This document shows positions 2,899 through 32,091 of a stretch of DNA of 33,820 nt, one piece after another. The notes below the pieces were generated by a model. The model was not told the DNA's origin and searched no databases. It saw nothing but the letters and a program-made list of their open reading frames with translations. The DNA is from an uncultured Planctomycetia bacterium (GTDB lineage: Bacteria; Omnitrophota; Gorgyraeia; 2-02-FULL-51-18). Location: assembly GCA_964489945.1 (NCBI GenBank), contig CAZBAY010000003.1:1-33820 (forward strand), written 5' to 3'. Position numbers and translations under genes: made by a program. Each line of letters begins with the position of its first letter. Positions within the stretch are counted from its first letter, which is position 1.

Positions 2899-3468
2899 TC
2901 AAGATCGACTGAGCGCTTCCAGGTCTTCTTTGCGGTTAACGTTCGAAAAAAAATGCGGCTTTCCCTGCCAATCGATCACTTGCTTCGAGGCGATCGCGTC
3001 CAGCAATCCCAAGAGCGATAATTCCTCCCGAAAGAGCCTTTCCTTCACCAATGGAAAAATGGACGCGGTGTAAACACCCGGAAAGGGCTGCACTGCCCCG
3101 TCCCCCATCCGGAAAACGGTCGTCAGGCGATGCTCATGGTAAGCCGATAAAAGCTCTGATAAAAGCGGCGGATCTAAAAGAGGCATATCGCAAGTCAAAA
3201 CGAGAAAATCCGTCCCGCTAAAAACGGACAGCGCGGTGTAAAGCCCTCCCAAGGGCCCCTTTTCGGGCAACTTATCTTTCACAACCGGCGATCTTAAAAA
3301 TGAATAATCGGCGTCGTCGCGTGTGACAACCACGGGCCGCAAATGCATCTGGTCGAGGAGACTCACCGCCCTCTCCACTAAGGGGACGCCCTGATAAGAC
3401 GCGAGGGCTTTATCCGTTCCGAAGCGCGTGCTCTTTCCTCCGGCGAGAACGAGGCCCCTGGCTGTCAT
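2899..3468 (-). CDS. mobA: molybdenum cofactor guanylyltransferase
   Basis: LVLAGGKSTRFGTDKA nucleotide-binding motif, then ..GPLGGLYTAL.. and LVLTCDMPLL. I chose the ATG at 3468 because it forms an ATGA overlap with the moaE stop. The listed ORF extends to 3504. Confidence 0.85.
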   Translation of the reverse strand: MTARGLVLAGGKSTRFGTDKALASYQGVPLVERAVSLLDQMHLRPVVVTRDDADYSFLRSPVVKDKLPEKGPLGGLYTALSVFSGTDFLVLTCDMPLLDPPLLSELLSAYHEHRLTTVFRMGDGAVQPFPGVYTASIFPLVKERLFREELSLLGLLDAIASKQVIDWQGKPHFFSNVNRKEDLEALSRS

Positions 3469-3893
3469 TGCGAAGCGACCTCCGCGTGTCCGCACAACAC
3501 CCACTCGCTCGTCCCGTCCTCAAAAAATTCATTCTTCCAGATGGGAACCGTATGCTTGATCTGATCGACAACGTGCTCGCAGGCGGCGAAGGCCTCGGCC
3601 CGGTGGGCGGAGCTCACCGCCACCGCGATCGCCGCCTCACCGATCCCCAGCCACCCCACGCGGTGCAAAACTTTTATCTCTTCAACGGGCCAACGGCTCT
3701 TTGTTTCCTCAATAATGGCCCCGATCCGCCTTTCGGCCATCGGCCGGTAACTTTCATAGTAAAGTTTCCAAACAACCTTCCCGTTATTGTGGTTTCTCAC
3801 GACTCCCACAAAGGACGCGACCGCCCCGCAGGACTCCGGTGGCGCGGCTGCCAAAAATTCGGATACGCGGATGGGTTCGTCGGTGATATGCAT
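3465..3893 (-). CDS. moaE: molybdopterin synthase catalytic subunit
   Basis: 142 aa with GAVASFVGVVRN..., ...HRVGWLGIGEAAIAVAVSSAHR.., ..VPIWKNEFFEDG, typical of MoaE. It directly abuts the moaD stop. Confidence 0.88.
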   Translation of the reverse strand: MHITDEPIRVSEFLAAAPPESCGAVASFVGVVRNHNNGKVVWKLYYESYRPMAERRIGAIIEETKSRWPVEEIKVLHRVGWLGIGEAAIAVAVSSAHRAEAFAACEHVVDQIKHTVPIWKNEFFEDGTSEWVLCGHAEVASQ

Positions 3894-4166
3894 TTAGCCT
3901 CCGGATACCGGCGTCATGAGCGCCAGCGTATCGCCGTCTTTTAAAACGTCTTCCGGCTCGACAAAATGTTCATTCACGGCGTAGAGAAGAGGGAACGTGC
4001 CGCTATCACCGTTCTCTGTCATTGCGAGCGAGGTCGCCGCGGCGACTGAGCGAAGCAATCTCCCGGCAAGTCTGCCGGCTGTCATTCCTTCCTCAACCAC
4101 AACGCTCGTTTCAGCTTCACCGAACGCTTCCCGAAGCTGAGCGAAAAAAAACACCTTAACTTTCAT
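3894..4166 (-). CDS. moaD: molybdopterin synthase sulfur-carrier subunit
   Basis: 90 aa with a ubiquitin-like MoaD/ThiS pattern: MKVKVFFFAQLRE.. and a C-terminal ..PVSGG. It forms an ATGA overlap with the moeA stop (4163-4166). Confidence 0.85.
   Translation of the reverse strand: MKVKVFFFAQLREAFGEAETSVVVEEGMTAGRLAGRLLRSVAAATSLAMTENGDSGTFPLLYAVNEHFVEPEDVLKDGDTLALMTPVSGG
4021..4059. repeat. palindromic REP-like element embedded in-frame in moaD
   Basis: ATTGC (4021-4025)/GCAAT (4055-4059) flank a perfect 14-nt palindrome GTCGCCGCGGCGAC (4033-4046). The segment encodes ..LLRSVAAATSLAMT.. in the variable middle of MoaD. Confidence 0.6.
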
Positions 4167-5392
4167 CGGCCGCTCTCCCAGACATAAGGAAGCGTGTGAA
4201 CCAGCCCCTTGTCCCCTTTCTCAAAAACTTTATTCGAAGGCGGCACCACCAAAATGGCGTTCGCCTGGCAGAGAGAGGAGATCATGTGAGAGGCCTGATG
4301 GCCCAGCGGCAATACTTCGGGAGGGCCGTTCAAAAGATCGATCCTGGCCTTGAGAAAAGTGGCCTTCTCGGGATCCGCTTTCACGGATTCCCGGAGGGGA
4401 AAAAATCCCGAGGGCAGGTGCGGGTTCTGAAAACCCATGGAGCGTCGGATGGCGGGATAAACGTACTCATAAAAGCAGGTGAAAACGCTCGCGGGATTCC
4501 CTGGGAGCCCGAAGACCAGCCGATCGCCCTTTTTGCCGAAATACATCGGTTTGCCCGGTTTTTGGCTCACTTTCCAGAAGATCGTCTCGACCCCCGCCTC
4601 GGCCAGGATGGTCTTCACGTGGTCATAATCACCGACCGAGACACCCCCCATGAGGATCACGATCTCGCTTTCTTTCAAAGCGTGGTTCACGACGCGTTTG
4701 ATACGGTTGGCGCTGTCATCCAGCCTTCTCACCAGAACGGGAGAAAGACCCATTTCCAACGCCGCCGCGTAGATCATCGAAGAATTGGAATCGTAAATTT
4801 TTCCCGGCCCAAGAGGCCTTCCAGGTGAAACAAGTTCCGAGCCGGTCGCGATGATGGAGAGCCTTGGTTTTTTAAAAACCTTCACGTCCTTTTTTCCGAG
4901 GCCCGACAAAAATCCGATCGTTCCGGGATTCACGACGGAATTTTTAGGAACTGCGATCTGTCCTTCTTTCAATTCCTCGCCCTTATAACGGATGTTCTTC
5001 CCTCTCGGCCAAGGTTGATCCACACAAAGGAAGTTTCCCTGAACAATGGCTTTCTCGACCGGGATGACCGTGTCCCCGCCGAAAGGCACGCAGGCGCCCG
5101 TCATGATGCGGTACGCTTCACCCGTCCCGACTTCCAGCGATCCGGCGTCTCCCGCTTTGATCGCCCCGCCGATCTTTAGGAGCACCGGCATTTCCGCCGA
5201 GGCGCTTTCAACGCTCTTCGACCGCAACACGAAACCGTCCATCGCTGAATTGTCAAAAACGGGCAAGGACAAAGGAGACAGAATGTCCTCGGCCACCACG
5301 CATCCCAACGCCTCAAAGAGCGGAAGGTTTTCCTCCTTAGCGGCAGGAACATTCTTCTGGATCAAACGTTGAGCTTCTTCGAAAGTGATCAC
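4163..5392 (-). CDS. moeA: molybdopterin molybdenumtransferase
   Basis: MoeA-like over its full length (..SPLSLPVFDNSAMDGFVL.., ..RIMTGACVP.., ..IILMGGVSVGDYDH.., ..GLPGNPAS..). I prefer the GTG start at 5392 (VITFEEAQRL..), 2 nt after the upstream stop. The listed ATG at 5464 would overlap the upstream gene by 70 nt. Confidence 0.85.
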   Translation of the reverse strand: MITFEEAQRLIQKNVPAAKEENLPLFEALGCVVAEDILSPLSLPVFDNSAMDGFVLRSKSVESASAEMPVLLKIGGAIKAGDAGSLEVGTGEAYRIMTGACVPFGGDTVIPVEKAIVQGNFLCVDQPWPRGKNIRYKGEELKEGQIAVPKNSVVNPGTIGFLSGLGKKDVKVFKKPRLSIIATGSELVSPGRPLGPGKIYDSNSSMIYAAALEMGLSPVLVRRLDDSANRIKRVVNHALKESEIVILMGGVSVGDYDHVKTILAEAGVETIFWKVSQKPGKPMYFGKKGDRLVFGLPGNPASVFTCFYEYVYPAIRRSMGFQNPHLPSGFFPLRESVKADPEKATFLKARIDLLNGPPEVLPLGHQASHMISSLCQANAILVVPPSNKVFEKGDKGLVHTLPYVWESGR

Positions 5393-5394
5393 GG

Positions 5395-6144
5395 CTAGAG
5401 CGCCTTGACGATCATATTCATGGATACAAAAAGCGTCAGCGCCGCCAGCACCCGGCGCAGCCATACTTCCTCAAACCGCTTCGCACCCAAGGTAGATCCA
5501 AAAATCCCGCCCATAAAAGCGGCCGCGCCCAGTGCCATGATGTCGGGACCGAATGAAAATCCGCTTGGCAAACGGCCCAAGAGTCCCGAGAGAGAGTTTA
5601 CGAAAATAAAAAAGGCCGCGGCGGCCGATGCCTCTTTGACGGTTGCCCATCTCATTAAGATCAAGATCGGACTTAAGAAAATACCTCCGCCGATCCCTAT
5701 GAGGCCCGAAAAAAATCCGACAAGCGCGCCTATCGGCAATCCATAGACCCACGCCTTCATTTGGGTCAAAGGGCGCCTTTGGCCCCGGTCCTTCCTTATA
5801 TATAGGATCCGCAGGCCCGCCAAAGCGAGCGAAATCCCCAAAAGCAGAGTGAACGCCTCTTTACCGATCGGCACTTGGGCACCGAGAAACGCCATCGGAA
5901 CGGAAAGCGCCGCGAAAGGCAGAACCTTCTTCGCGTCAAAATAGCCGGCCTTGTAAAAGTTCCAGAACCCGACGCTGGAAACGACCAGGTTGCAAAAAAG
6001 CGCGATCGGCTTGATCTCGCCGTAAGAAAAACCTGCCAGAAGAAGGACCGCCAGGTACGAAGAGCCCCCCGCAAAACCGACGGACGAATAGATAAAAGCC
6101 ACGGCAAAAAACGCGAGCGGGAGCCAGACAGCCATATCGTTCAT
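5395..6144 (-). CDS. TauE/SafE (DUF81) family anion permease
   Basis: 249 aa, polytopic. It has the family-typical glycine-rich segments (FIYSSVGFAGGSSYLAVLLL and FFSGLIGIGGGIFLSPILIL). It forms an ATGA overlap with the upstream moaC-mog stop. Confidence 0.75.
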   Translation of the reverse strand: MNDMAVWLPLAFFAVAFIYSSVGFAGGSSYLAVLLLAGFSYGEIKPIALFCNLVVSSVGFWNFYKAGYFDAKKVLPFAALSVPMAFLGAQVPIGKEAFTLLLGISLALAGLRILYIRKDRGQRRPLTQMKAWVYGLPIGALVGFFSGLIGIGGGIFLSPILILMRWATVKEASAAAAFFIFVNSLSGLLGRLPSGFSFGPDIMALGAAAFMGGIFGSTLGAKRFEEVWLRRVLAALTLFVSMNMIVKAL

Positions 6145-7067
6145 TTCAAAACTCCTTTCGGTTCAGTATGTCCGAGGCCCTTCATCATGCCGTAAGCATG
6201 GAGCATCGACGGAAAAAGGGCGTTCAAACCTTCCTCGGTGCCTTTCGAAGATCCCGGAAAATTAATAATGAGCGTATTTCCTTTTTGGCCTGCCAGACCG
6301 CGCGAAAGCATCGCGTAAGGTGTTCTGGCTTGACCATAGGCTCTTGCCGCTTCCATCACTCCCGGGATCTCGCGCTCGATCACTTCCCTCGTCGCTTCCA
6401 CTGTCACGTCTCTTGGGCCAAGACCCGTTCCGCCGGTCGTGACGATCAGATGAACTTTTTCCTCACAGAGTTTATTTAATACTTCCACTATCTTTTCCTT
6501 ATCATCCGGAAGAATGGTGTAACTGGGAGAGATCCCAAAACTCTCAAGTCTTTCTTTGATAATTTTTCCCGAACTGTCTTGGCGCGTGCCTTTGGAGGTG
6601 CTGTCCGATGTCACGATCACCGCCGCTTTGAAATTTTTTGGAAACTTTTGTTCAAAATCAGTTTTGCCTCCTTTTTTAGACAAGAGTTTTGTCGAAACAA
6701 TTTCAATTTCTTTGTCGATCGGCTTCAACATATCATAAATTGTAAGCGCGGCAGCCGAGGCAGCGGTCAGCGCCTCCATCTCCACCCCCGTTTTCCAAAT
6801 CGCCTCCACCGATGCCGTGATGTTGATCCTGTCAGCCAGCACTTCAAACTCGATCTCCACCGAATCGATCGGAATAGGGTGGCAATAAGGGATCAAATCC
6901 GGCGTCTTCTTCGCCGCCATCACCCCCGCCACCCTCGCTACGATCAGGATGTCTTTCTTAGGCACGTCATTAGCCTGAAGACGTTTGATCGTCTCAGTCT
7001 TCGCCAAAAGCGTGCTCGTCGCCGTTGCTTTCCTCAAAGTTGTTACTTTATCTGTTATTGATTTCAT
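6141..7067 (-). CDS. moaC: bifunctional cyclic pyranopterin monophosphate synthase (MoaC) / MogA-MoaB-type molybdopterin adenylyltransferase fusion
   Basis: The N-terminal half has MoaC motifs (ARVAGVMAAKKTPDLIPYCHP, KTGVEMEALTAASAAALTIYDM). The C-terminal half has MogA/MoaB motifs (VIVTSDSTSKGTRQDSSG, VTTGGTGLGPRDVT). Confidence 0.85.
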   Translation of the reverse strand: MKSITDKVTTLRKATATSTLLAKTETIKRLQANDVPKKDILIVARVAGVMAAKKTPDLIPYCHPIPIDSVEIEFEVLADRINITASVEAIWKTGVEMEALTAASAAALTIYDMLKPIDKEIEIVSTKLLSKKGGKTDFEQKFPKNFKAAVIVTSDSTSKGTRQDSSGKIIKERLESFGISPSYTILPDDKEKIVEVLNKLCEEKVHLIVTTGGTGLGPRDVTVEATREVIEREIPGVMEAARAYGQARTPYAMLSRGLAGQKGNTLIINFPGSSKGTEEGLNALFPSMLHAYGMMKGLGHTEPKGVLK

Positions 7068-8090
7068 TCAGCCCCCAATACTGTGGATCATCGGATTCGA
7101 CGCGAACACCAGATCCTTGTCCTCTTCAAATTTAAACGGCTTGTCGCGGAACCAGTTTCCTCGAGGCTTCAAGCTCACCGCAAGCCGGACCGCGCGGACT
7201 ATATCCTCATCCGGCGCGTTGTCTCTTAAAAGATTTTTCACCGAAACCTGCGAATCTGAAAAGAGACACGACTGAATTTTTCCGTCCGCCGAAATACGGA
7301 TCCGCGAGCACTGATCGCAAAAGGATTCCGTAAGTGAGGCGATGAAACCCACTTTTCCCTTCCCGCCTCGGATCTTAAAGGTCTGCGCCGGCTTATCCAA
7401 GCGCGGCTCGTCGTCTTCGATCAGATCAAAGTTTTCCATGACAATAGCCCGAACTTTTTCGATCGGCCATACAAGGTCCGGCCTCCAACCCGTGCCGCAT
7501 AGAGGCATAAACTCCAAAAATCTCACGTCGAGCGGATACTCGAAGGCCATTCGAACGTAATCCAGGATATCCTTCGCGGTAATTCCCCTTAAAACCACCA
7601 TGTTGAGCTTCACGGGGAAGCCCGCCTCGAGCGCCTCAAAAACGGAGCCAAGGACCTTGGCGTAGGTATCACTTAGTGTGATCTCCTCAAAACGTTTGGG
7701 ATCCAAGCTATCGAGACTGATATTGATCCTATCGAGGCCGGCCTCTTTTAAATCATGAACCATCGGCCCCAAACGGCTCCCATTGGTCGTGATCGAAAGG
7801 TCCTTCACGGTTTCGACACCTTTAAGCGCGCGAACAATATCTAAAATATCTTGGCGTAAAAGAGGCTCTCCGCCCGTGAGGCGGATCCGGTGAACGCCCA
7901 GGCTGCCCATAATTTTTACGAAACGGCCAATTTCTTGTTTTGTAAGGTACGAAGAAGGGGGGATAAGCATGGGCAGACCCTCGGGCGGCATGCAATAAAC
8001 ACACCGGAAATTGCAAAGGTCTGTCAGAGAAATTCTTAAATTAGAAACCCGCCGCCCCCAAGGGTCAGCGAGAATATTCTCCTGTGCCAC
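7068..8090 (-). CDS. moaA: GTP 3',8-cyclase (radical SAM)
   Basis: [10 protein letters not shown] radical-SAM cluster motif, ..[10 protein letters not shown].., a C-terminal second cluster [14 protein letters not shown], and terminal GG. Confidence 0.9.
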
Positions 8091-9123
8091 TTATCCGCTC
8101 CTTGATGAGACTCTTTACCAAATTTATGACCATCCCTATAAAAATGACAAGCCATGCTGCCAAAGCGACATAAATAAAAAAACGAGGTATCAAAAGTAAG
8201 AATTGCACATTTATCACTTGAGCCAGTCGAAACGTGCACACCGTGTACATTCCTAAAGGAAATACCATCGCCCAGTATTGGGGGTCATAGGAAAATGGAA
8301 ATTTTTTATAGAAATGACGCCAAATGCCCAAAGCTATGAGAACAGGGATCCATAAAGTCCCCACTGCCCAAAAAAATACAATGGAACCTTTAAGGAAAAT
8401 CCAAAATCCTTCCGTAAGGATCCCCGGCTGCGCGTTGAGAATGAGCGTGGCGCCCGCCAATGTCGTGATCGCCGCGGCACCCATCGTGATCCAATAAGAC
8501 GGCTTCACGGTTTCGGGTTCAAGATTTAATAAAAGGAGGCGATAAGAAATGAGCGTGATTAAAAAAAGATACAGCACCGCTCCTAACAAATACAATCCAA
8601 GGGACAAAAAAAGAAGCCCCGAAAACTCTTTTTGAAGCTCAGAAGAGAGAAGCGCGCCTAGAATTGAGAGAGACTGCGTACTCACGACCAACAAAAGCCA
8701 CCCCCCGTGGATGCTTTTTTCGAACCGCAATTTGATCTGCCAAAATGTTGCCGCGGTGAAAAACGCGCAGAGGATGATCCCCCAAAGCAGGATCCCAAGG
8801 ATCCACAAAAAAAGGGCCTTTGGAAAATCGGCGTTAAACACGAAATATTGAACCCCCAGAACACAGGAGCCGGCGACCAGCGTGAGAAAGCCTGGGCCCC
8901 GCATCGGATCCGCGAGATCCTGCAACACACGAGGAAAGTAGCCTACGAGACGGGCCAGCGTCAGTACCCAAAGAAGCACATAAGCGACTTGGTTTACTCC
9001 AAAAAGTACCCAAGCGATATTTCGCATCTCCAAAAGATAAGCGGCGATGGAAACAATCCCCGTTGCCATCACGAGCGCGAAATAACCGGGAAACAAATTC
9101 TCGATCTCTGATTTTAATTTCAT
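8065..9123 (-). CDS. TDT (TehA/SLAC1/Mae1/Ssu1) family anion transporter
   Basis: About 10 TM helices. The N-terminal signature [15 protein letters not shown] resembles TehA (PAGYFGIVLGT). I chose the ATG at 9123 because it forms an ATGA overlap with the nitrate reductase stop. The 3' end overlaps moaA by 26 nt. Confidence 0.72.
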
Positions 9124-11381
9124 TTCCTCAACTCCGCCTCGGTCGCGGCCGGCCATTCCTTTTTCGGGCGCTTCAAGAGCGGCACCTCCGAGCGCCCCAC
9201 CCGCACCGCGGCCTGTTTGTAGTTGGGTTCCCTTGAAAAGGGGTCGCAGTCGCTTACCGTAAGATTATTCGCGTTGGCTTCCGCGTAGTGAAACGGAATA
9301 AAAATCTGACCCGGAGGGATCGTCTCCGTCACACGCAGGACGACGCGCTCGATCGAGCCGCGGCGTGACTCCACACGTACATAATCGCCGTGATAAAGCT
9401 TAAGCTGCTTGGCATCGCGCGGATTCATTTCGACCCACGCTTCGGGAGACAGACGATTTAAAAGCGGGATCTGCCCTGTTTTTGTCCGTGTGTGCCAGTG
9501 CTCAACGGTGCGGCCGGTATTGAGCATAAAGGGATAGTCCTCATCCGGACTCTCCGGCGGCGCGTTATTCTCAACCACCCAAAGTTTCGCTCGTCCGTCT
9601 TCGGTTTGAAACACCCCGTCGGCGTAAAGCCGCGCGTTTTCCTCCGGATTACGAGGAGAATCCACCGAGAAGGGCCACTGGATTCCTCCGTGTTTTTCCA
9701 GCAATTCATACGTGAGACCTGAGTAGTCGCAGAGCCGCCCGCGCGATATTTTTTTCCACTCCTCGAAAGCGTCTTTCGGTTCCTTCCAACCCGGATAAAT
9801 TTGATCTGTGACGCCCAATTCTTTCGCGAGCATCAGGAAAATATCAAAATCAGACTTTGCTTCGCCCGGCGGCTCGACGGCCTTGTTGACTTTACTCACC
9901 GTTCGTTCGGAGTTGGTGTAGGTCCCCTCTTTTTCACCCCAGACCGCCGCCGGGAGTACGAGGTCCGCGACCTGGCTCGTGGGAATCGGGTGATAGCCAT
10001 CCTGCACCACCAGAAAATCGAGCCGGTCGAGGCAATCCAAAAGGAATTTTTGATTCGGGAATGAAACCAATGGGTTTGTCGCGATGATCCACAGGCCCTT
10101 AATGGTTCCGCGCAGTACCCCTTCAATAATATCGGGATACGCCAAACCGCGCGCCGTGGGGATCATCTCCTCTTTAACCCCCCAGAGCATGGCCAGCTCC
10201 TTCCGATGGGACGGGTCTTCATACTTCCGGTAGCCCGGCAGCGACGCGGTGAAGCCCGTCTCGCGCGTGCCCATCGCGTTGCACTGACCCGTGATGGAAA
10301 AAGGAGACGCCCCCACCTTCCCCACATTACCCGTGATGAGGGCCAGGTTACAAATCGCGTTCACCGTCTCGGTGCCTTGCGTGCTGTGATTGACACCCAT
10401 CGTCCATCCAATAAAAGGCGCTTTGGCATGGCCATACAAAAGGGCGGTATGCCGCACTTGGTCTACTGAAAGACCTGTTATCTCACTGACCTTCTCCGGC
10501 GTAAATTTTTCAACGTGTTTCTTAAGGTCCTCAAAACCGTTCGTGTGTTTTTGGATGTAATCCTTGTCGATTTTGTTTTCCTTGATCAAAACGTGCATCA
10601 TGCCATTCAAAAGCGCGATATCTGTTCGCGACTTTAAAGGCAGATAAACATCCGCCATCATCGCCGTTTTGGTGACGCGGGGGTCGGCGACGATGAGAAT
10701 TCTTTTTTGGTTCTTCTCAAGCCGATAACACAAAATCGGGTGATTGTCCGCGATGTTGGCGCCTATCAAAAAAACAAGATCCGCTTTTTCAAGATCTTCG
10801 TAAGAGCCCGGCGGCCCATCGCTTCCAAAGGATCGTTTATAGCCGGCTACGGCACTCGCCATGCAAAGGGTCGTGTTCCCATCGAAATGTTTAATTCCAA
10901 ATCCGAGCCGCGCAAGCTTGCCAAGCGTGTAAAACTCCTCCGTCACAAGCTGGCCCGTACTGATAACGCCAACCGCCTCCGGCCCATACTGGTTCTGGAT
11001 GGTTTGAAAACGGCCCACCATCTCACGGATCGCCCAATTCCAATCAATGCGGCGAAATTTGCCATTCACTTTTAAAAGGGGGTATTTCGCGCGGTTGGGC
11101 GCGGTGATCGCGTAGTGTTCGGAAAGCCCTTTGGGACAAAGTCTCCCCTCGTTCACAGGATGGTTGGGATTGCCGCGGACACTCACGGGTTTCCCCTTTT
11201 TTTCTCCGATAAACATGCCGCAACCGACGGAGCAGTAGCCGCAGGTCGTCGGGACCCAGCGATCGGGAATTTTGGCCTTCGACATGTAGCCAAACTGCTC
11301 ATCGACACCGTAGGCGTATTTCCCCATCTCGATATCGATGCCGAGCTGATGTTTAATTGCCTTAAAAAAATCTTTTTTCAT
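9120..11381 (-). CDS. nasA: NasA/NarB-type molybdopterin (bis-MGD) nitrate reductase catalytic subunit, no Tat signal
   Basis: N-terminal 4Fe-4S motif [12 protein letters not shown]...[12 protein letters not shown] and a full-length molybdopterin oxidoreductase architecture. I chose the ATG at 11381, which follows AAGGA and lies 7 nt after the upstream stop. No RR motif is present. Confidence 0.85.
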
Positions 11382-11388
11382 ACAATCC

Positions 11389-13050
11389 TTATTTGGTGCT
11401 AAAAAATCCACCCGGCATATTTTTCGGCACAATCGTCACAAAGAAAAGGTAACGCCCCAGTCCCTCGCCTAAAAGGGAAATAACAAAAGAAACCGCCGAA
11501 AGAGTCAGCAAATCCGTGCCGGAGGCTTTCCCGTGAACGGCGAAATAGAAAAGATAGATAAGAGGCAGAATAAAGCTCCCAAGCGTAAGAAGTCCAATGC
11601 GCACGAGAAAATGGTATCTGAAACGCCGTGTGAGTAAAATCGCGGAATCGTAGAGCTCAATATCCCTGTCCCTATCGAGATAAAAAAGCCTCGCGAAGAG
11701 CACCAAAAGCTGCATGAAAGCCGCCCCGCTTGAAACAGCGAGAAATCCAAAAATAGGGCCGCAATCAGCGAACGAAATGGGGCCCTGCATGCGACTCATG
11801 ATATAAATCGAATAGACAACAAAACTAAAGAGAGGCCCCAGGATAAACCCGGTCAAAAAGAAGCGTAGAGGCGTTCGGATCGTGTTCCACGCGGGCCGCG
11901 CCGGGACCATGTAGATCTTGGCGCTGGCGTAAACTCCCGCGACGCCTAGGAAGGCCACAGTCCCGCCAAAGGTAAACCGCGCCGCCACAGGAACCGAGAA
12001 ATTCAGGTAGTGGGACGCTAAGAGCAGGGCCGCATAAGAAGCTCCGAAGACGGAAAAAAGCGTAAAAAATAGGACCTCCCGACTGAGCCAGGAACGCTTC
12101 CACATCCTCAAAGCCTTATAAGCATGGAGAGGGCGCCCAAGATGAAACACGGAAGCCCCTAACGCAATGCCGGTTACCGCCAACATCCCAAACGCGCCAA
12201 AAGCCAAAAAATTTTGTAGGGGTTTTAAAAAATCAAAAATATAAGAAAAAAGATCCCCAAAACCAATGGTCACAAACCCTCCGGCAGCTAGCTGCGTCAA
12301 AACCGTCATGAAAATAAGAGACATGTGGGAATGCTCAGGCACAACCTTGTGGCGGTTTAATCGGAGCATCTCCTCAGGCATGTCTTTGGGAAGTGTGATG
12401 CGCGTCGTGGAAACTGTGATCCCGGAATCCGGCATTCCCGGCGCGTCCGCCTGGGCATGATTCCCGCGCCATTCGGTCCTATCTACTTTTTCGATCAAGA
12501 TCGCTTCCTCAGGACAGGCGGCTACGCAAGCCGGAGCCATCCCGTCCGCTATTCGGACATGACACATATCGCACTTAGTCACAATATTCCGCTCAGGGTT
12601 AAACTGCGGGACGCCGTACGGGCAATTCCAAGTACAGTACTGACAGCCAATGCACTCTTCGGCCTTGTGCTTCACAACGCCGGTCTTTTCATCTTTTTCA
12701 TAGGCATCCGTAGGGCACCCTGTGAGACACGAAGGATCCAGGCAGTGATTGCAAGCCATGGAAAGATGAAAACGCTTTGTATCGGGATAAACACCTCCCT
12801 CGATTTCCCCTACACGGCGCCAGGTAACGCTCGCGGGATTATTGTTTTGTTCATTACAGGCCACGACACAGCACTGACAGCCCACACAACGATCCATCCG
12901 AAAATGAAAACGGTACTGCTCGCCTTCTTTGAGAGGTTCTGAGGGAATAAGAGCGGGAGTGTAGCGGCCTTCCTTATTCACCCTGTTTTTCAGGGGAAGG
13001 CCGTAGGCGTCCATCACATCGATAAGGGAGATTTCCTCTGGCGGGGTCAT
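11389..13050 (-). CDS. fusion protein: four-[4Fe-4S] DmsB/NrfC-type ferredoxin domain + DmsC-like 8-TM membrane anchor
   Basis: Four Cys clusters are present: CVGCQCCVVAC, CNHCLDPSCLTGCP, CIGCQYCTWNCP, CDMCH...CVAACP. About eight hydrophobic helices follow. There is no signal or Tat peptide. It forms an ATGA overlap with the nirD stop. Confidence 0.8.
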   Translation of the reverse strand: MTPPEEISLIDVMDAYGLPLKNRVNKEGRYTPALIPSEPLKEGEQYRFHFRMDRCVGCQCCVVACNEQNNNPASVTWRRVGEIEGGVYPDTKRFHLSMACNHCLDPSCLTGCPTDAYEKDEKTGVVKHKAEECIGCQYCTWNCPYGVPQFNPERNIVTKCDMCHVRIADGMAPACVAACPEEAILIEKVDRTEWRGNHAQADAPGMPDSGITVSTTRITLPKDMPEEMLRLNRHKVVPEHSHMSLIFMTVLTQLAAGGFVTIGFGDLFSYIFDFLKPLQNFLAFGAFGMLAVTGIALGASVFHLGRPLHAYKALRMWKRSWLSREVLFFTLFSVFGASYAALLLASHYLNFSVPVAARFTFGGTVAFLGVAGVYASAKIYMVPARPAWNTIRTPLRFFLTGFILGPLFSFVVYSIYIMSRMQGPISFADCGPIFGFLAVSSGAAFMQLLVLFARLFYLDRDRDIELYDSAILLTRRFRYHFLVRIGLLTLGSFILPLIYLFYFAVHGKASGTDLLTLSAVSFVISLLGEGLGRYLFFVTIVPKNMPGGFFSTK

Positions 13051-13442
13051 TGATTTGCCATCTTCATATTATCTTCCGCGTTCACAGTGACCTCGGGCGC
13101 GCTTTCTTCCGGGTCGTTCAATTTTCCGTTGTTAAAGGCGACATAAATATCTTTTCCGACAGCCTTGACCGGATACGTTTTCACTTGGCCAGGACCGTAG
13201 GTCATGGCGCAACCGGTTTTCAAACTGATCTTCCAGTTGTGAAGGGGACAAAAAACAGCCTTGCCGGCGATGATACCGTCGGCAAGAGGGCCCTGCTTAT
13301 GGGGACAATGGCCGTCGAGGACCGAGAACTCCCCGTTCCCTAAATTAAAAAGGGCAAATTCCTGGCTCTGGAAGTAAACCCTTCTTCCCTCCTGCACGGG
13401 GATCGCGTCTATCTTCGCGACTTTGAACCACTTGGTTGGCAT
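13047..13442 (-). CDS. nirD: nitrite reductase small subunit (Rieske-like)
   Basis: CPHKQGPL...CPLHNWK Rieske-type motif. I chose the ATG at 13442, preceded by AAGGA and a 5-nt spacer. An alternative ATG at 13469 lies in the loop of an upstream hairpin. Confidence 0.85.
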   Translation of the reverse strand: MPTKWFKVAKIDAIPVQEGRRVYFQSQEFALFNLGNGEFSVLDGHCPHKQGPLADGIIAGKAVFCPLHNWKISLKTGCAMTYGPGQVKTYPVKAVGKDIYVAFNNGKLNDPEESAPEVTVNAEDNMKMANQ

Positions 13443-13458
13443 TTTTTTCCTTGTGTAA

Positions 13459-13479
13459 GGGCGACCCATCGGGTCGCCC
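13459..13479 (-). other. GC-rich 9-bp hairpin in the nirB-nirD intercistronic spacer
   Basis: GGGCGACCC (13459-13467), a 3-nt loop, then GGGTCGCCC (13471-13479). The pairing is perfect. Confidence 0.7.
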
Positions 13480-13488
13480 CTACGTTGA

Positions 13489-15921
13489 TTAATCCAAAAT
13501 CAACGCTTCGATTTCTTTTGGTAATACAAGATCGTTAAACTGAACCGGGTGAACCGGCTTCTTGGACTCCACCGCCCAAGGCTCCTGAGCGCGCTCCTTC
13601 GATTTTTTGAGCCGCTCAAGCAGTCCCATTTTCACTTCGTCCGAAGCGAGAATGGTTTCTCGCCGGATCGTCTCAAGCCCCAGACGCGGCACAAAATCAT
13701 AGGTCCTTTCCAGATATTCGCCGTTTTCACGATAATACTGGAAAAAAAGCGCCGCCGCTTCAAGCGCCTCTTCCGTCGTCTTCACCGTACATAAAATATC
13801 CGCCGCCCTCACGGATTTTCCCGCCGAGCCGCCGATCACGACCTGCCACCCGCCCTCGATCCCAACGAGGCCGATGTCTTTCACCGTCGCCTCGGCGCAG
13901 TTCCGCGGGCAACCGACACAACCCATTTTCACTTTTGCCGGCGTATAGAGATTTTCGAACATCCGTTCAAGCTCGATGCCGGTCTCGATAGAGTTCTGGG
14001 TGCCGAAACGGCAGAAATCCGTGCCGACGCAGCTTTTCACCATGCGCACGGCCTTCGCGTACGCGTGCCCAGAGGGCATGCCCAGCTCCGCCCAGATCTT
14101 GGGAAGGTCCTCTTTTTTGACCCCGAGGAGATCGAGCCGCTGGCTTCCCGTGACCTTCACCATCGGGACCTTGTATTTTTCCGCGACATCCGCGATCTTC
14201 CGGAGCTCCGCCGGCGAAGTGACCCCTCCGCGCATGCGCGGCACCACCGAAAAAGTGCCGTCCTTTTGGATATTCGCGTGCACGCGGTCATTGATGTAAC
14301 GCTTGGAACGGTCCTCCACATGATCGCCGAGCCACACTTCGTCCACCAGGAAACTCAAGGCCGGTTTGCAGGAGGAACAGCCCGTGCCGTTGCCGTAAAT
14401 GTCGAGAACGTCCTGAACTTTCCGGATCTCCTGCGAGCGGATGATGCCTCGAAGCTGGCTTTTGGCGAACGGCACGCAGGCGCAGAGAACGTCTTTCTTT
14501 TCCTCCTGGAATTCCGTGCCGCAAACCGCCTTGAGAATGCCTTCCACGAGCCCGCTGCAGGTTCCGCAGCCTGTCGACGCGCGCGTGCACTTCTTGACAT
14601 CGGAAAGCGTCTTTAAAGCTTTGTCTTTGATCGCGCCGACGATCGCGCCTTTTGAAACGCCGATACAGCCGCAGATGGTTTCCGAATCGGGCAGGGCCAT
14701 GACGTCCTTCGCGGAGCCGGTGACGTCCGGAGCTTCCTCAAACAAAAGGTTTTTTCTTTTGTCGCCTATCCTTTCCTCTTTCCGGATCATTTCAAGGAAT
14801 CGATTCGCGTCTCGGGCGTCTCCGATAAGAATACAGCCGACGATCTGTCCCTTCTGGACCACAAGCTTTTTGTACACGCCAAAGGCGTGGTCCTCATAGG
14901 CGACTCTCTCCTTGCCCTCCCCTTCATCCTTAAAGTCGCCCGCCGAGAATAGCTCAATCCCCATCACCTTGAGCTTTGTCGCGAGTGTCGAGCCCTTGTA
15001 TTCCGGGCCTTTGTTCCCCGTGATCGTCGCGGCCAGCACCTTCCCCTGATCATAAAGAGGCGCCACAAGACCGTAAACTTTTTCGCGGTGCTCCACGCAT
15101 TCGCCGATGGCGAAAATATCGGGGTCGCTTGTTTCCATGTGGTCATTCACCACAATGCCACGATTCACTTTGAGGCCCGCTTTTTTACCAAGCTCCACGT
15201 TAGGCCGGATCCCGCAGGCGATGACCACCATGTCCGCCTCAACGATCGAGCCGTCCTTGAACATCAGGCCCTCCACCCGGCCGTTTCCCATGAATTTCGT
15301 CGTGCTTTTGCTCAAAAGCACTTCGATGCCCATCTTCTCGATCTCTTTTTTCAAAAACTCGCCCCCGACGGGATCAAGCTGGACGTCCATGAGCCGGTCC
15401 ATGAGATGCACCACGGAGACCCTCACGCCCTGGTTGGCGATGCCGCGCGCGGCTTCCAGTCCCAAAAGCCCGCCGCCGATCACTACGGCTTTTTTAGATG
15501 TTTTGCAGAATTTCAGGATGTTGTTCGTGTCCGCCATGTTGCGAAAGGTGAACACGCCTTCTTTATTCACGCCTTCGATGGGAGGGATAAAGGGGTTGCT
15601 GCCCGTGGCCAAAAGGAGAAGATCATATTCGTGGACCATGCCGTCTGCGGTCGTGACGGTTTTATTTTTCGCGTCGACTTCAGCCGCCTTTGCCCCGAGA
15701 CAAAGGGTGATGTTGTTCTTCTCGTACCATTCCTGGGAATTGATATAAATATCATCGACCGACTTCTCGCCGGCAAGCACGGAGGACAAAAGGATCCGGT
15801 TATAATTGTAGTAGGCCTCTTCGCTCAGGACCGTGATCTGGAAATCCGGTTTTTGCTTCAGAATTTCGTCGACGCAGGCCATGCCGGCCATGCCGTTTCC
15901 CACTACAAGAAGTTTTTTCAC
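13489..15921 (-). CDS. nirB: NAD(P)H-dependent nitrite reductase large subunit (siroheme/[4Fe-4S])
   Basis: 810 aa. It has an N-terminal FAD/NAD fold (LLVVGNGMAGMA), BFD-like 2Fe-2S motifs (CGCIGVSKG.., CTRASTGCGTC) and a siroheme/FeS motif (SCVGTDFCRFG..CVGCPRNC). The start is GTG 15921, 8 nt after GGGAG. Confidence 0.92.
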   Translation of the reverse strand: MKKLLVVGNGMAGMACVDEILKQKPDFQITVLSEEAYYNYNRILLSSVLAGEKSVDDIYINSQEWYEKNNITLCLGAKAAEVDAKNKTVTTADGMVHEYDLLLLATGSNPFIPPIEGVNKEGVFTFRNMADTNNILKFCKTSKKAVVIGGGLLGLEAARGIANQGVRVSVVHLMDRLMDVQLDPVGGEFLKKEIEKMGIEVLLSKSTTKFMGNGRVEGLMFKDGSIVEADMVVIACGIRPNVELGKKAGLKVNRGIVVNDHMETSDPDIFAIGECVEHREKVYGLVAPLYDQGKVLAATITGNKGPEYKGSTLATKLKVMGIELFSAGDFKDEGEGKERVAYEDHAFGVYKKLVVQKGQIVGCILIGDARDANRFLEMIRKEERIGDKRKNLLFEEAPDVTGSAKDVMALPDSETICGCIGVSKGAIVGAIKDKALKTLSDVKKCTRASTGCGTCSGLVEGILKAVCGTEFQEEKKDVLCACVPFAKSQLRGIIRSQEIRKVQDVLDIYGNGTGCSSCKPALSFLVDEVWLGDHVEDRSKRYINDRVHANIQKDGTFSVVPRMRGGVTSPAELRKIADVAEKYKVPMVKVTGSQRLDLLGVKKEDLPKIWAELGMPSGHAYAKAVRMVKSCVGTDFCRFGTQNSIETGIELERMFENLYTPAKVKMGCVGCPRNCAEATVKDIGLVGIEGGWQVVIGGSAGKSVRAADILCTVKTTEEALEAAALFFQYYRENGEYLERTYDFVPRLGLETIRRETILASDEVKMGLLERLKKSKERAQEPWAVESKKPVHPVQFNDLVLPKEIEALILD

Positions 15922-15948: not shown

Positions 15949-16001
15949 AAAAAAACATCCTTACGTTCACGGGCATGCTTTACCCGCTTACGGTAAGGAC
16001 G
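15949..16001 (-). terminator. intrinsic-terminator-like hairpin + U7 tract inside the nirB leader (candidate attenuator)
   Basis: On the minus strand, CGUCCUUAC (16001-15993) pairs with GUAAGGAUG (15964-15956), 9 bp including one G.U. The 28-nt interior contains its own CGGGU../..GCCCG helix. UUUUUUU (15955-15949) follows immediately, and the element ends 27 nt before the nirB GTG. Confidence 0.5.
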
Positions 16002-16142
16002 CCTTTATTCCTAATTATTTTTCCAGCTCGCCCAAACTTTTCTTGCCGACAAGCGCCCGGCTGATCTGAAAAAGAACCTCTAACTGTTTCTTCTCTTGCG
16101 TCCCTGAATCCCGTGTGATGACACTAATTTACGGGCGCGTGT

Positions 16143-16925: not shown

Positions 16926-16937
16926 TACTGAGATTTC

Positions 16938-19376: not shown

Positions 19377-19386
19377 ATGTTTTTTG

Positions 19387-19395: not shown

Positions 19396-19425
19396 CAGGT
19401 TTCAAAGGGCGTACGCCGGTTTTTG

Positions 19426-28943: not shown

Positions 28944-28957
28944 CGCGAATTAAGGGC

Positions 28958-32071: not shown

Positions 32072-32091
32072 TTGATCATTTTAACCCAAAT

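Follow-up and report, generated by a model that had tools for sequence, protein, structure and literature searches.

The window, meaning the whole 33,820-nucleotide stretch of DNA analysed here, carries a 12-gene co-directional cluster (2899-15921) whose first gene is nirB (Table 1). NirB exceeds the TIGR02374 cutoff (909 bits against 578). The nirD stop and the start of the following gene, which encodes a fusion of a four-cluster ferredoxin with a DmsC-like membrane domain, overlap as ATGA ('caATGAcc'). Seven nucleotides (ggattgt) separate the TAA of the fusion gene from the nasA start, an ATG at 11381 located 3' of a Shine-Dalgarno-like AAGGA. A TTG at 11432, given as the nasA start in the ORF list, was rejected on account of its position inside the fusion gene. 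The 3' end of nasA is overlapped by 37 nt by a SLAC1/TehA gene, whose product is a candidate nitrate/nitrite transporter; an MFS transporter gene occupies the same place in the closest relative, and MFS or FNT transporters are found in other fusion loci. As judged from its gene content, the cluster would supply a putative anion transporter together with the full Mo-bisMGD pathway. The order moaA, moaCB, TauE, moeA 3' of nasA was also detected in four related loci (L001, L003, L014, and L021).

Table 1. Genes and features of the nitrate reductase cluster and the nirB leader.
Feature	Coordinates	Strand	Basis
Strong hairpin and U-run in nirB leader	15949..16003	(-)	Sequence and fold
NirB, NAD(P)H-dependent sirohaem nitrite reductase large subunit	13489..15921	(-)	TIGR02374, Pfam
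NirD, small subunit with intact Rieske [2Fe-2S] ligands	13047..13469	(-)	Pfam Rieske, TIGR02378
FeS-DmsC fusion protein, 553 aa	11389..13050	(-)	ORF; Pfam Fer4_11 + DmsC
Four-cluster ferredoxin domain, residues 45-190	12481..12918	(-)	Cys groups, TIGR02951
TM2-TM3 loop, putative quinol site	12076..12153	(-)	Alignment with E. coli DmsC
DmsC-family eight-helix membrane domain, residues 242-537	11440..12327	(-)	Pfam DmsC, TM segments, charge bias
NasA-type Mo-bisPGD catalytic subunit, 753 aa, Tat-less	9120..11381	(-)	Pfam, motifs, NJ tree
SLAC1/TehA (TDT) family anion channel/transporter	8065..9156	(-)	Pfam SLAC1, 3.6e-46
Co-directional Mo-bisMGD cofactor genes	2899..8090	(-)	Pfam, small ORFs
moaA	7068-8090	(-)	Pfam
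moaC-moaB/mog fusion	6141-7067	(-)	Pfam
TauE/SafE-family permease	5395-6144	(-)	Pfam
moeA	4163-5464	(-)	Pfam
moaD	3894-4166	(-)	Small-ORF scan; MoaD-like product, GG at end
moaE	3465-3893	(-)	Pfam/small ORFs
mobA	2899-3504	(-)	Pfam/small ORFs

The 189-nt nirB leader folds with a predicted energy of -53.5 kcal/mol (z = -2.46), and similar hairpin-plus-T-run elements are present 5' of nirB in three related loci (L003, L008, and L011). The hairpin may act as a transcription attenuator. In the closest relative, a GAF-ANTAR gene is located directly 5' of nirB.

Two Pfam models match the fusion above their gathering scores: Fer4_11 at residues 95-185 (2.7e-21) and DmsC (PF04976) at residues 242-537 (2.2e-21). 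The best NCBIfam match, DMSO_dmsB (TIGR02951), scores 157 bits over residues 45-190, under the equivalog cutoff of 214, and homologues of the protein carry the name 'DmsC/YnfH family molybdoenzyme membrane anchor subunit'. The ferredoxin domain contains 16 Cys in four complete DmsB-type groups (C55-x2-C-x2-C-x3-C65; C100-x2-C-x4-C-x3-C112-P; C133-x2-C-x2-C-x3-C143-P; C160-x2-C-x11-C-x3-C179-P). Its sequence matches in the PDB include PcrB, ArrB, FdnH, and PsrB; Foldseek returned 1kqf_B, 6cz7_B, and 2vpw_B, with FdnH as the best structural match. Eight TM segments were detected between residues 245 and 532 by a hydropathy scan, and the AlphaFold2 model has eight long helices in the TM domain with pLDDT above 90; this domain was matched by Foldseek to ActC and PsrC (2vpw_C, TMt 0.66). 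Neither an RR motif nor a hydrophobic stretch was found at the N-terminus (maximum 11-residue hydropathy 1.02 in the first 60 aa), and none of 57 fusion homologues has an RRxFL-like Tat motif. The initial annotation had described a 553-aa protein with four complete DmsB-type Cys motifs, about eight TM helices, and no signal or twin-arginine peptide, chained to nirD and nasA by an ATGA overlap and a 7-nt gap; this description is borne out, as is its reading of NasA as free of an RR motif.

NasA matches the Pfam models Molybdop_Fe4S4, Molybdopterin, and Molydop_binding. Its FS0 Cys motif lies at residues 47-82, the Mo-ligand Cys173 is encoded at 10863-10865, and neither an RR nor a hydrophobic h-region occurs near the N-terminus (first 46 residues). 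The active-site motif CMASAV is identical to that of NapA 2jim ('vdgnprlCMASAVggy'), whereas FdhF has 'lCHAPTV'; a second motif, 'sitGQ', has no Arg and resembles 'sltGQ' of NapA, whereas FdhF has 'plRGQ'. Both motifs are kept in all 34 fusion-linked NasA homologues, and by these residues the active site is of the Nap/Nas "Cys-Met" type, not of the formate dehydrogenase "Cys/Sec-His...Arg" type. In a small NJ tree (100 bootstraps), the fusion-linked NasAs were monophyletic in 100 replicates and fell inside the Nas group (Klebsiella NasA, S. meliloti NarB) in 79; grouping with NapA occurred in one replicate and with FdhF in none. NasA of the window shares 35-37% identity with these two proteins, Klebsiella NasA and S. 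meliloti NarB. The best plasmid-borne relatives are annotated as nitrate reductase (37-42% identity), with fdhF and napA at about 30-35%. Clustering with formate dehydrogenase, which the initial annotation had named as fatal to its nitrate reductase assignment, is thus opposed by both the tree and the motifs. Molydop_binding ends at residue 724 of 753, which leaves no extra C-terminal redox domain, so an external FeS donor would be needed.

The fusion-then-nasA pair was found in at least 566 reference genomes; a second clade with the pair, about 35% identical, includes cultured Planctomycetes. Among related loci with enough downstream sequence, nasA lies directly 3' of the fusion gene on the same strand in 72/74 genome loci and in 62/62 metagenome loci of the second clade. 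The two exceptions are L067, where nasA overlaps the fusion stop, and L029, with less than 1 kb of downstream sequence. The arrangement is not a matter of chance, since it recurs at these loci, and by this synteny the two genes appear as a conserved module and a dedicated partnership. Their junction is mostly a 4-nt overlap. The usual company of the module consists of nirBD, nitrate transporters (MFS, FNT), and Moco genes; in Turneriella the pair occurs without nearby nirBD, but with a NirA-type reductase and an MFS transporter.

Strong charge asymmetry was observed in the membrane domain. The fusion has 24 Lys+Arg on the side of the FeS domain against 3 on the other side, and 57 homologues average 21.7 against 3.3 (minimum ratio 3.7); the same bias is seen in all clade-2 and distant members with eight TMs detected. 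E. coli DmsC, used as a control, has the opposite bias (4 against 8), as expected from its periplasmic termini. The positive-inside rule and the lack of signal peptides predict a cytoplasmic location for the FeS domain, all Lys/Arg-rich loops, and the conserved TM2-TM3 loop, with the DmsC-like domain inserted the opposite way to E. coli DmsC. The earlier proposal that the catalytic and FeS modules face the cytoplasm, which an FeS domain outside the cell would contradict, agrees with this charge bias and with the absence of Tat/Sec signals from both proteins. Its general statement that DmsABC-type enzymes place their FeS and catalytic subunits in the periplasm overlooked SoeABC, which has been proposed to face the cytoplasm.

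The quinone-binding site of E. coli DmsC includes residues S62, H65, S82, and E87 (PMC8076601). Residues S300, H303 (HLGRP), S320, and E325 (SWLSRE) of the fusion align with them. H303, S320, and E325 are invariant across 57 sequences, and both motifs are present in 16/16 sampled members of the two clades, which are only ~35% identical overall; no other positions in the membrane domain are conserved as strongly as these quinol-site residues. Conservation of all four DmsC positions strengthens the suggested link to the quinol pool, with a quinol as the presumed donor.

The fusion shares with E. coli DmsABC the four Cys groups of DmsB, the eight-helix Pfam DmsC domain, and the quinone-site residues, and its nearest annotated plasmid matches are adjacent dmsB and dmsC genes (33-38% identity). 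In contrast to DmsABC, B and C are fused here, no Tat-dependent export is involved, the membrane domain is predicted to insert the other way round so that its FeS side lies in the cytoplasm, and the partner belongs to the Nas and not the DmsA clade. NarGHI provides a functional precedent, being quinol-dependent and membrane-bound with a cytoplasmic active site. Mycobacterial NarGHI also serves assimilation together with NirBD. However, NarGHI has an Asp-ligated type II catalytic subunit (NarG), a far larger NarH, and a di-haem cytochrome b (NarI), which oxidises quinol on the periplasmic side and makes the reaction electrogenic. The fusion scores a weak 46 bits with the narH model, whose cutoff is 524, and no cytochrome b gene was found in the cluster. 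Classical Nas enzymes (NarB, NasC, Klebsiella NasA; Paracoccus NasC with NasB/NasG) form the clade of the catalytic subunit and are likewise cytoplasmic; they have FS0 and Cys as the Mo ligand, and their genes lie near those for NirBD, nitrate transporters, and a Rieske-type NirD/NasG. Their known donors are soluble ferredoxin/flavodoxin or NADH-flavoprotein subunits, whereas the present cluster has FeS and membrane subunits that are fused and syntenic. FdnGHI and the proposed FqoABC formate:quinone oxidoreductases, the latter with an NrfD-like eight-helix anchor (PMC8076601), also combine a catalytic subunit of the Fdh/Nas/Nap radiation with a four-cluster ferredoxin; unlike the present pair, they oxidise formate, are Tat-exported and periplasm-facing, and have separate subunits, and FdnI is a cytochrome b. 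The topological precedent, compared by published description, is the sulfite:quinone oxidoreductase SoeABC of Allochromatium vinosum and Aquifex aeolicus, in which the membrane subunit is inverted and N-side-facing and quinone is bound at the cytoplasmic face; it was the only NrfD/DmsC-type complex described as N-side-facing in a 2021 review (PMC8076601). SoeABC differs in that it oxidises sulfite and reduces quinone, which reverses the electron flow, in that SoeB and SoeC are separate proteins, and in that SoeA belongs to another Mo-enzyme lineage, bSreA/SoeA (PMC10100899).

The best reading is an inverted DmsBC module that carries a Nas catalytic subunit, with the fusion proposed as the electron-transfer, quinol-oxidising membrane subunit of the nitrate reductase. 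We hold with moderate confidence, from sequence comparison, that the fusion and NasA form a membrane-anchored, cytoplasm-facing quinol:nitrate oxidoreductase feeding NirBD.

The same quinol-linked cytoplasmic enzyme could instead be mainly dissimilatory, serving as an electron sink or in respiration and feeding NirBD for redox balancing or cytoplasmic DNRA; energy would then be conserved earlier in the chain, at NADH dehydrogenase. An enzyme that draws on the quinone pool is by its design coupled to the respiratory chain, NirBD is able to serve nitrite ammonification, and many Omnitrophota, the lineage from which the window appears to come by its closest homologues, are groundwater MAGs. In Mycobacterium tuberculosis, NarGHI is used with NirBD in a comparable way. 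We nevertheless consider this role unlikely: the clusters are of the classic assimilation type with MFS nitrate transporters, the regulator in the nearest relative is of the ANTAR (NasT-like) kind, and no respiratory regulators were found within the window. The module is, moreover, common in Acidobacteriota and in cultured Planctomycetes (Gimesia, Symmachiella), which are mostly aerobic heterotrophs.

The main rival to the quinol link itself is an NADH route via the Rieske-type NirD, in which electrons would pass from NADH through NirB (FAD, 2Fe-2S) and NirD to the four-cluster domain and NasA in a supercomplex. In some lineages an FNR-like flavoprotein could be the entry point, and the DmsC-like domain would be mainly a tether, for example beside a nitrate transporter, or a secondary/overflow quinone link. 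By its ligands (CPH...CPLH), NirD is here a NasG-like, intact Rieske protein, and the CxH...CxxH pattern is kept in 60/60 neighbouring homologues. The homologous NasG of Paracoccus has reportedly been proposed, in work by Gates and colleagues in 2011, to carry NADH-derived electrons from NasB to NasC, which offers a precedent. The overlap of nirD with the fusion start would provide translational coupling, and nirB or nirD occurs in 45/51 long clade-1 loci. An FNR-like gene (FAD_binding_6 + NAD_binding_1) directly 5' of the fusion gene in 13/80 clade-2 loci, including Gimesia alba, hints that some members of the family, at least, receive electrons from pyridine nucleotides. On the other hand, this gene is absent from the window and from 80/80 clade-1 loci, the pair exists without nirBD or a Rieske gene within ±8 kb at three loci (L020, L037, and L041), and the ordinary role of NirD is as part of NirBD. 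A pure anchor would have no need of the DmsC quinol-site residues, yet these are the best conserved, and the NADH route appears rather doubtful to us.

A different substrate for the enzyme (formate, chlorate, or some other oxyanion) is very improbable, and so is a conventional DmsABC-like reductase that faces the periplasm after export by a route not recognised here. NasA does fall short of every NCBIfam equivalog cutoff; its top raw score, 605, is for the broad Fdh-alpha model (cutoff 666), its top PDB match by E-value is an FdhF, and Nas enzymes have been reported to reduce chlorate in vitro (PMC9751292). The Cys-Met, no-Arg motifs, the tree, and the conserved nirBD and nitrate-transporter context speak against another substrate, and the missing export signals and extreme positive-inside bias against a periplasmic reductase.

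In the preferred quinol-linked assimilatory enzyme, NasA would dock onto the FeS domain through its FS0 cluster, the arrangement common to all complex iron-sulfur molybdoenzymes. A quinol, probably menaquinol, would be oxidised at the His303/Glu325 site on the cytoplasmic face of the membrane domain, and two electrons would pass through the four clusters and FS0 to Mo, where nitrate is reduced to nitrite; NirBD would then convert nitrite to ammonium with NADH. Because quinol would release its protons, and nitrate reduction take protons up, both in the cytoplasm, the nitrate step would be non-electrogenic by itself; outward proton conduction by the NrfD-type domain would change this. We found no description of a fusion-anchored Nas pairing in the literature, and this widespread pairing seems to have gone undescribed so far. 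Through it, membrane quinols probably supply electrons for nitrate assimilation; if so, NAD(P)H or ferredoxin would be spared and nitrate assimilation would be tied to the respiratory quinone pool.

Twelve co-directional genes, overlapping for the most part, occupy the minus strand from nirB to the far end of a complete Mo-bisMGD cofactor set (see table). They include nirB, nirD, a gene for a protein in which a DmsB-type four-cluster ferredoxin domain is joined to a DmsC-type membrane domain (the fusion), and a gene for a NasA-like molybdoenzyme. The junctions are as tight as described in the initial annotation: the nirD stop and the fusion start share an ATGA, and the TAA of the fusion is followed by 7 nt and then by the ATG of nasA at 11381, which is preceded by an AAGGA Shine-Dalgarno-like sequence. 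A TTG at 11432, proposed as the nasA start in a mechanical ORF list, was rejected; this position falls within the fusion gene.

Features of the gene cluster, its surroundings and the compared loci (positions are those of the window unless a numbered locus is named)
Feature	Location	Strand	Remarks
Co-directional gene cluster	2899-15921	-	
Hairpin and U-run closing the nirB leader	15949-16003	-	about 25 nt 5' of the start codon
nirB	13489-15921	-	TIGR02374, 909 bits
nirD	13047-13469	-	Rieske [2Fe-2S] ligands CPH...CPLH
FeS-DmsC fusion, 553 aa	11389-13050	-	
N-terminal extension of the fusion, residues 1-30	12960-13050	-	LPLKNRV..GYY.P
NasA-like molybdoenzyme, 753 aa	9120-11381	-	
N-terminal extension of NasA, residues 1-45	11247-11381	-	conserved motif LG[LI]...
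SLAC1/TehA (TDT) family anion channel	8065-9156	-	37-nt overlap with nasA 3' end
Complete Mo-bisMGD cofactor set	within 2899-15921	-	moaA, moaC-moaB, TauE/SafE permease, moeA, moaD, moaE, mobA
TauE/SafE (TSUP) permease	5395-6144	-	between moaC-moaB and moeA
tRNA gene	2808-2892	+	past the mobA end of the cluster
FecR-domain protein	2166-2801	+	past the mobA end of the cluster
tRNA gene	1394-1467	-	past the mobA end of the cluster
Large cell-envelope glycan cluster	16251-33813		several GT2 and GT4 glycosyltransferases, PMT/ArnT-like mannosyltransferase, three sulfotransferases, ABC-2/Wzt-type exporter, type I phosphodiesterase
GAF-ANTAR gene	L171:5294-5983		directly upstream of nirB
"Nitrate reductase", Deinococcus taeanensis plasmid	L082:5917-8836		sister clade
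"Nitrate reductase", Streptomyces plasmid	L087:5980-8954		sister clade
FNR-like flavoprotein, Gimesia alba CP036269.1	L170:8224-8994		256 aa; FAD_binding_6 and NAD_binding_1
FNR-like flavoprotein, other clade-2 loci	L090, L091, L097, L102, L106, L110, L111, L122, L125, L127 and others		

Databases label the fusion protein by its domains alone. Pfam Fer4_11 was found at residues 95-185, with a score well over the gathering threshold, and PF04976 (DmsC) at residues 242-537 (76.9 bits, cutoff 22.3; 7-273 of the 275 profile positions). The best curated model was DMSO_dmsB at residues 45-190, which scored 157 bits, under the equivalog cutoff of 214. The four complete cysteine groups and about eight transmembrane helices first read from the sequence were both recovered: 16 cysteines form the DmsB-type groups I-IV and are invariant in an alignment of 57 homologues, and a hydropathy scan gave eight segments between residues 245 and 532. 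An AlphaFold2 model based on the same alignment had a pTM of 0.79, with eight long helices at pLDDT >90 and with the FeS domain, modelled without cofactors, at lower confidence than the membrane helices. In Foldseek searches the N-terminal half resembled FdnH, ArrB and PsrB and the membrane half resembled ActC and PsrC; the profile match and the eight-helix bundle of NrfD/PsrC fold place the latter in the PF04976 family. No signal peptide is present, as had been noted earlier: the N-terminus is acidic, hydrophilic and free of a twin-arginine motif, which is likewise absent from all 57 homologues. The N-terminal extension of the fusion is conserved.

NasA contains the Molybdop_Fe4S4, Molybdopterin and Molydop_binding domains (Pfam; all over the gathering score), an FS0 [4Fe-4S] motif (C47-x2-C-x3-C...C82) and a Mo-ligand Cys at residue 173, a domain content of the Nas type. 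The protein ends 29 residues after the Molydop_binding domain and thus has no redox domain of its own beyond FS0. It is Tat-less, as claimed in the initial annotation; the first 46 residues contain neither RR nor a hydrophobic h-region (maximum hydropathy 1.37). Scores stayed below the equivalog cutoffs for NasC (NF047855; 557 bits vs. 1100) and haloarchaeal NasA (NF041323; 524 vs. 1000), and also below that for the formate dehydrogenase alpha subunit (TIGR01591; 605 vs. 666). The top PDB matches were an FdhF and the NapA of D. desulfuricans. These scores leave the identity of NasA ambiguous, and it was the alignment of individual residues that decided it. Around the Mo ligand NasA is identical to this NapA (lCMASAVggy), where FdhF reads lCHAPTVag; ahead of the GQ motif NasA has "sit" and NapA "slt", while FdhF has "plR" with the catalytic Arg. 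A Cys-Met context with no His after the ligand and no Arg before GQ is of the nitrate reductase type, and the CMASAV-type and Arg-free GQ motifs are kept in 34/34 NasA homologues encoded beside fusion genes (fusion-linked NasAs). Among annotated plasmids and chromids, the best matches are labelled "nitrate reductase" (Deinococcus, 41.6%; Streptomyces, 37.5%; S. meliloti pSymB, 37%), and they outrank fdhF and napA.

A bootstrapped neighbor-joining tree was built with Klebsiella NasA, S. meliloti NarB, Citrobacter NapA and B. licheniformis FdhF as references and E. coli DmsA as the outgroup. In this small tree (20 sequences, 724 columns), obtained by a simple method, the fusion-linked NasAs were monophyletic in 100/100 bootstraps, had the Deinococcus and Streptomyces enzymes as their sister group (bootstrap 91), and fell within the Nas group of Klebsiella NasA and S. 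meliloti NarB in 79/100, compared with 0 for a grouping with FdhF and 1 for NapA. The assignment of the catalytic subunit to Nas, and not to formate dehydrogenase, was thereby upheld. With 35-43% identity to other Nas proteins, NasA represents a distinct subfamily. The gene context, which includes nirBD, MFS and FNT transporters and an ANTAR regulator, also points to nitrate use, and nitrate reductase activity is predicted for the enzyme.

The N-terminal extension of NasA, of about 40 residues, is conserved across phyla; some homologues have RR in it, and none has a hydrophobic h-region. The extensions of NasA and the fusion may be vestigial Tat or chaperone-binding peptides, or may provide inter-subunit contacts. 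The plasmid-borne sister-clade genes encode proteins of about 820 aa (40-43% identical) and are each followed by an overlapping hypothetical gene of about 155-165 aa, where the FeS-DmsC fusion would be. This gene may encode a further uncharacterised Nas partner.

Relatives of the fusion were found in at least 566 genomes in a scan of one genome per GTDB species. Hosts among the best 80 of these genomes include Omnitrophota, MAGs labelled Planctomycetia, Chlamydiae, Actinomycetes, Turneriella and Nitrospira, together with many Acidobacteriota, Burkholderiales and Dormibacterota. Directly 3' of the fusion, and on its strand, a nasA homologue (62-81% identical) is encoded in 72 of the 74 loci, from the same best 80, that have at least 800 nt past the fusion; in the two exceptions nasA overlaps the fusion stop (L067) or less than 1 kb of downstream sequence is available (L029). 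Where the junction could be parsed, it is as a rule a 4-nt overlap. nirB or nirD is present in 45/51 loci of at least 12 kb. Since nirBD precedes the pair in Omnitrophota and follows it in Acidobacteriota, the invariant feature is the order of fusion and then nasA. In other loci, such as that of Turneriella (with genes for a NirA-type reductase and for an MFS transporter), the pair stands without nirBD.

When 1.84 billion cluster representatives were searched exhaustively with HMMER, 783 clusters (50% identity) were recovered at E <= 1e-30, with the full-length fused architecture retained down to 34% identity. Apart from the close relatives (clade 1), there is a second group of fusions, about 35% identical overall (clade 2). 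For P0152, a representative of clade 2, a molybdoenzyme gene is next in 62/62 metagenome loci with room for it; the best reference match of these enzymes is the NasA of the window (40-46%), and nirBD is often close by. Clade 2 is found in cultured Planctomycetes (Gimesia alba, G. fumaroli, G. aquarii, G. panareensis, G. chilikensis and Symmachiella dynata), where it is annotated as "anaerobic dimethyl sulfoxide reductase chain B" or "DmsC/YnfH family anchor". The gene order in G. alba is MFS transporter, NirB-NirD fusion, FNR-like flavoprotein, fusion, NasA; NirB and NirD are joined in one 992-aa protein in Gimesia. In the plasmid collection (plasmids and chromids), no record matched the fusion over at least 80% of its length; the matches were to dmsB and dmsC as separate genes. 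The Rhodobacter record H14 was rejected as a carrier, as it holds an unrelated periplasmic-type Mo enzyme cluster; the Proteus record H1 is unannotated.

The nearest relative of the window is L171, a locus from an Omnitrophota MAG; its fusion is 80% identical, and its flanking glycosyltransferase genes are the same. The glycosyltransferase and PMT genes of the glycan cluster are syntenic between the two. The order in L171 is GAF-ANTAR regulator, nirB, nirD, fusion, nasA, MFS, Alginate_exp-type porin, moaA, moaCB. In the window, the SLAC1/TehA gene fills the slot held by the MFS transporter in L171 and by MFS or FNT nitrate/nitrite transporters elsewhere. Among the best 80 of at least 566 genome loci, a SLAC1/TehA homologue near the fusion was seen only in L072. 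Possibly, a bacterial SLAC1 homologue has here been recruited to transport nitrate or nitrite. The position of the TauE/SafE permease gene is kept in the loci L001, L003, L014 and L021, and an oxyanion such as molybdate is a conceivable substrate.

A strong hairpin with a U-run closes the nirB leader of the window, and similar elements lie upstream of nirB in the related Omnitrophota loci L003, L008 and L011. The GAF-ANTAR gene of L171 is absent from that place in the window. These observations suggest NasT/NasR-like antitermination control of the nirB leader. An Rfam scan of the window returned the two tRNAs only, with no known riboswitch or leader, and a sigma-70 promoter scan was at background level.

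The orientation of the fusion in the membrane was predicted from loop charges. The loops contain 24 Lys and Arg on the side of the FeS domain vs. 3 on the opposite side. For the 57 homologues, with loop boundaries carried over via the alignment, the means were 21.7 vs. 3.3 and the lowest ratio was 3.7. E. coli DmsC, whose termini are established as periplasmic, served as a control and showed the reversed sense (4 on the N-terminal side vs. 8 opposite). Charges in clade 2 were counted only in sequences with eight detected transmembrane segments; the crude hydropathy predictor saw 6-7 in some others, in which loop parity is lost and counts are meaningless. Based on a bias opposite to that of E. 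coli DmsC, the FeS domain, the C-terminus and the even-numbered loops of the fusion are predicted to be cytoplasmic, as the initial annotation had proposed for the FeS module, and the DmsC-like domain would lie upside-down relative to E. coli DmsC. This agrees with the missing Tat signal, since to our knowledge cofactor-loaded FeS domains reach the periplasm via Tat only. Tat co-export of catalytic and FeS subunits to the periplasmic face is known for Dms, Psr, Ttr, Nrf and Fdn; here neither the fusion nor NasA carries a Tat signal, and the FeS domain is N-terminal to TM1 on the Lys/Arg-rich side. Unlike in the DmsC family, the termini and the quinol site are not predicted to be periplasmic.

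The quinone site of DmsC has been assigned to S62, H65, S82 and E87 in a review of the NrfD family (PMC8076601). Pairwise alignment of the E. coli DmsC stretch ASMLHLGSPMRAFNSLNRVGASALSNE with the fusion stretch ASVFHLGRPLHAYKALRMWKRSWLSRE matches these residues to S300, H303, S320 and E325 of the fusion. Of the four, H303, S320 and E325 do not vary among the 57 aligned sequences, and the motifs HLGRP and SWLSRE are present in every sampled member of clade 2 despite the low overall identity. Conservation this strict would be predicted for a working quinone site and not for a mere anchor. The TM2-TM3 loop, which bears these residues, is the richest in Lys/Arg of the fusion loops and is thus placed on the cytoplasmic side, beside the FeS domain.

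Nas-clade placement, charge bias, conserved quinol-site residues and synteny lend sequence support to the earlier interpretation of the pair as a quinol-linked cytoplasmic nitrate reductase. The Tat-less Nas enzyme and the cytoplasm-facing fusion most likely constitute a quinol:nitrate oxidoreductase. By analogy with the architecture of complex iron-sulfur molybdoenzymes, NasA would dock through FS0 onto the FeS domain of the fusion, quinol would be oxidised in the H303/E325 pocket at the cytoplasmic face of the membrane, and electrons would pass via the four clusters to the Mo of NasA. The nitrite formed would be reduced by NirBD with NADH. The donor is probably menaquinol, for which E. coli DmsC is specific and whose oxidised form, menaquinone, is used by most host phyla of the module. 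With the nitrate/nitrite couple at about +420 mV, oxidation of quinol by nitrate would be strongly exergonic. Since the release of protons from quinol and their uptake with the substrate would both take place on one side of the membrane, the step would be non-electrogenic, unlike that of NarGHI, unless the NrfD-type domain conducts protons across. The cell would gain by reducing nitrate with cheap quinol electrons, sparing NAD(P)H and reduced ferredoxin, and the reaction would be tied to the redox state of its respiratory chain. We consider it rather improbable that the inverted NrfD/DmsC-type domain sends quinol protons to the periplasm by an NrfD-style pathway, or otherwise couples to the proton-motive force, so that nitrate assimilation conserves energy. 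If it did, the module would be functionally analogous to NarGHI but free of haem, and would add a fourth architectural class, widespread among soil and aquatic phyla, to the prokaryotic nitrate reductases.

Chief among the rival explanations is an NADH route into the nitrate reductase, via the Rieske-type NirD or an FNR-like flavoprotein. The Rieske ligands are intact in the NirD of the window, as in 60/60 NirD homologues adjoining a fusion, and nirD is translationally coupled to the fusion gene. E. coli NirD is not known to have these ligands, and the NirD homologue of Paracoccus, NasG, is considered to pass electrons from NasB to NasC. Because all four [2Fe-2S] ligands are kept, the NirD of the window is NasG-like and possibly a second electron entry point. 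The fusion-nasA pair, however, is also found with no nirBD or Rieske gene nearby. The gene for the FNR-like NAD(P)H flavoprotein lies directly 5' of the fusion in 13/80 clade-2 loci but is absent from the window and from 80/80 clade-1 loci, and a membrane domain that was only a tether would not keep the quinol-site residues. Quinol and NADH inputs could also operate side by side. A physiological rival, compatible with the quinol link, is a dissimilatory role for the module, as an electron sink that would feed DNRA in the cytoplasm; the MFS nitrate transporters, the ANTAR regulator and the aerobic heterotrophic hosts favour assimilation. A substrate other than nitrate or a periplasmic orientation is unlikely: formate dehydrogenase identity, raised by the top NCBIfam and PDB scores, was rejected on active-site motifs, tree placement and gene context, and against the periplasmic orientation stand the missing Tat/Sec signals and a positive-inside bias that is extreme and opposite to that of the E. 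coli DmsC control.

The textbook prokaryotic nitrate reductases are soluble Nas, periplasmic Nap and membrane-bound Nar. NarGHI combines NarG, which has an Asp ligand, with NarH and the di-haem cytochrome b NarI. The quinol:nitrate oxidoreductase predicted here is unlike it: the fusion scored 46.6 bits with the narH model (cutoff 524), NasA gave a weak match to the DMSO_red_II alpha model, and no cytochrome b gene is present in the cluster of the window. A 2021 review of NrfD-like subunits covers Nrf, Psr, ACIII, Dms, Ttr, Sre, Soe, Qrc, Nhc, Hyd-2, Dsr, Arr, Mcc and Fqo; among these only SoeABC is described as facing the N-side, and none is a nitrate reductase (PMC8076601). As in SoeABC, the catalytic and FeS subunits would be on the N-side with an inverted NrfD/DmsC-type anchor, in our case as predicted from charge bias and missing signals. 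In contrast to SoeABC, the catalytic subunit is not SoeA, given its placement in the Nas clade of the neighbor-joining tree. The module would thus be SoeABC-like in topology, Nar-like in function (quinol to cytoplasmic nitrate) and Nas in catalysis. It has been concluded from a phylogenetic survey that the Fdh/Nas/Aio/Nap clade never pairs with canonical four-cluster and membrane-anchor subunits (PMC7331816). A Nas-clade enzyme encoded right after a fused DmsB-DmsC protein contradicts this generalisation at the level of sequence. Searches of openly accessible full-text literature turned up no account of a Nas enzyme partnered by a DmsBC-type protein. While a Nas-clade catalytic subunit, a DmsB-type ferredoxin and a DmsC-type anchor are each familiar parts, the way in which they are combined and oriented here is not.

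Far from rare, the pairing is found in dominant phyla of soils and waters (Acidobacteriota, Planctomycetota, Omnitrophota and Actinomycetota). We infer the quinol donor and the bioenergetic consequence of the module from its genes, and cultured carriers such as Gimesia and Symmachiella make the quinol-linked reading directly testable. The module would be a second, independent case of an inverted NrfD/DmsC-type domain after SoeABC, useful for understanding proton coupling in this family. If quinol is the donor, metagenomic calls of "nasA" as a soluble enzyme would need revision, as would the labels "DMSO reductase" and "formate dehydrogenase iron-sulfur subunit" given to its neighbour. Nitrate assimilation in these bacteria would then be wired to the respiratory chain and not to NAD(P)H or ferredoxin, which would alter both the energetic cost and the redox control of nitrate use.
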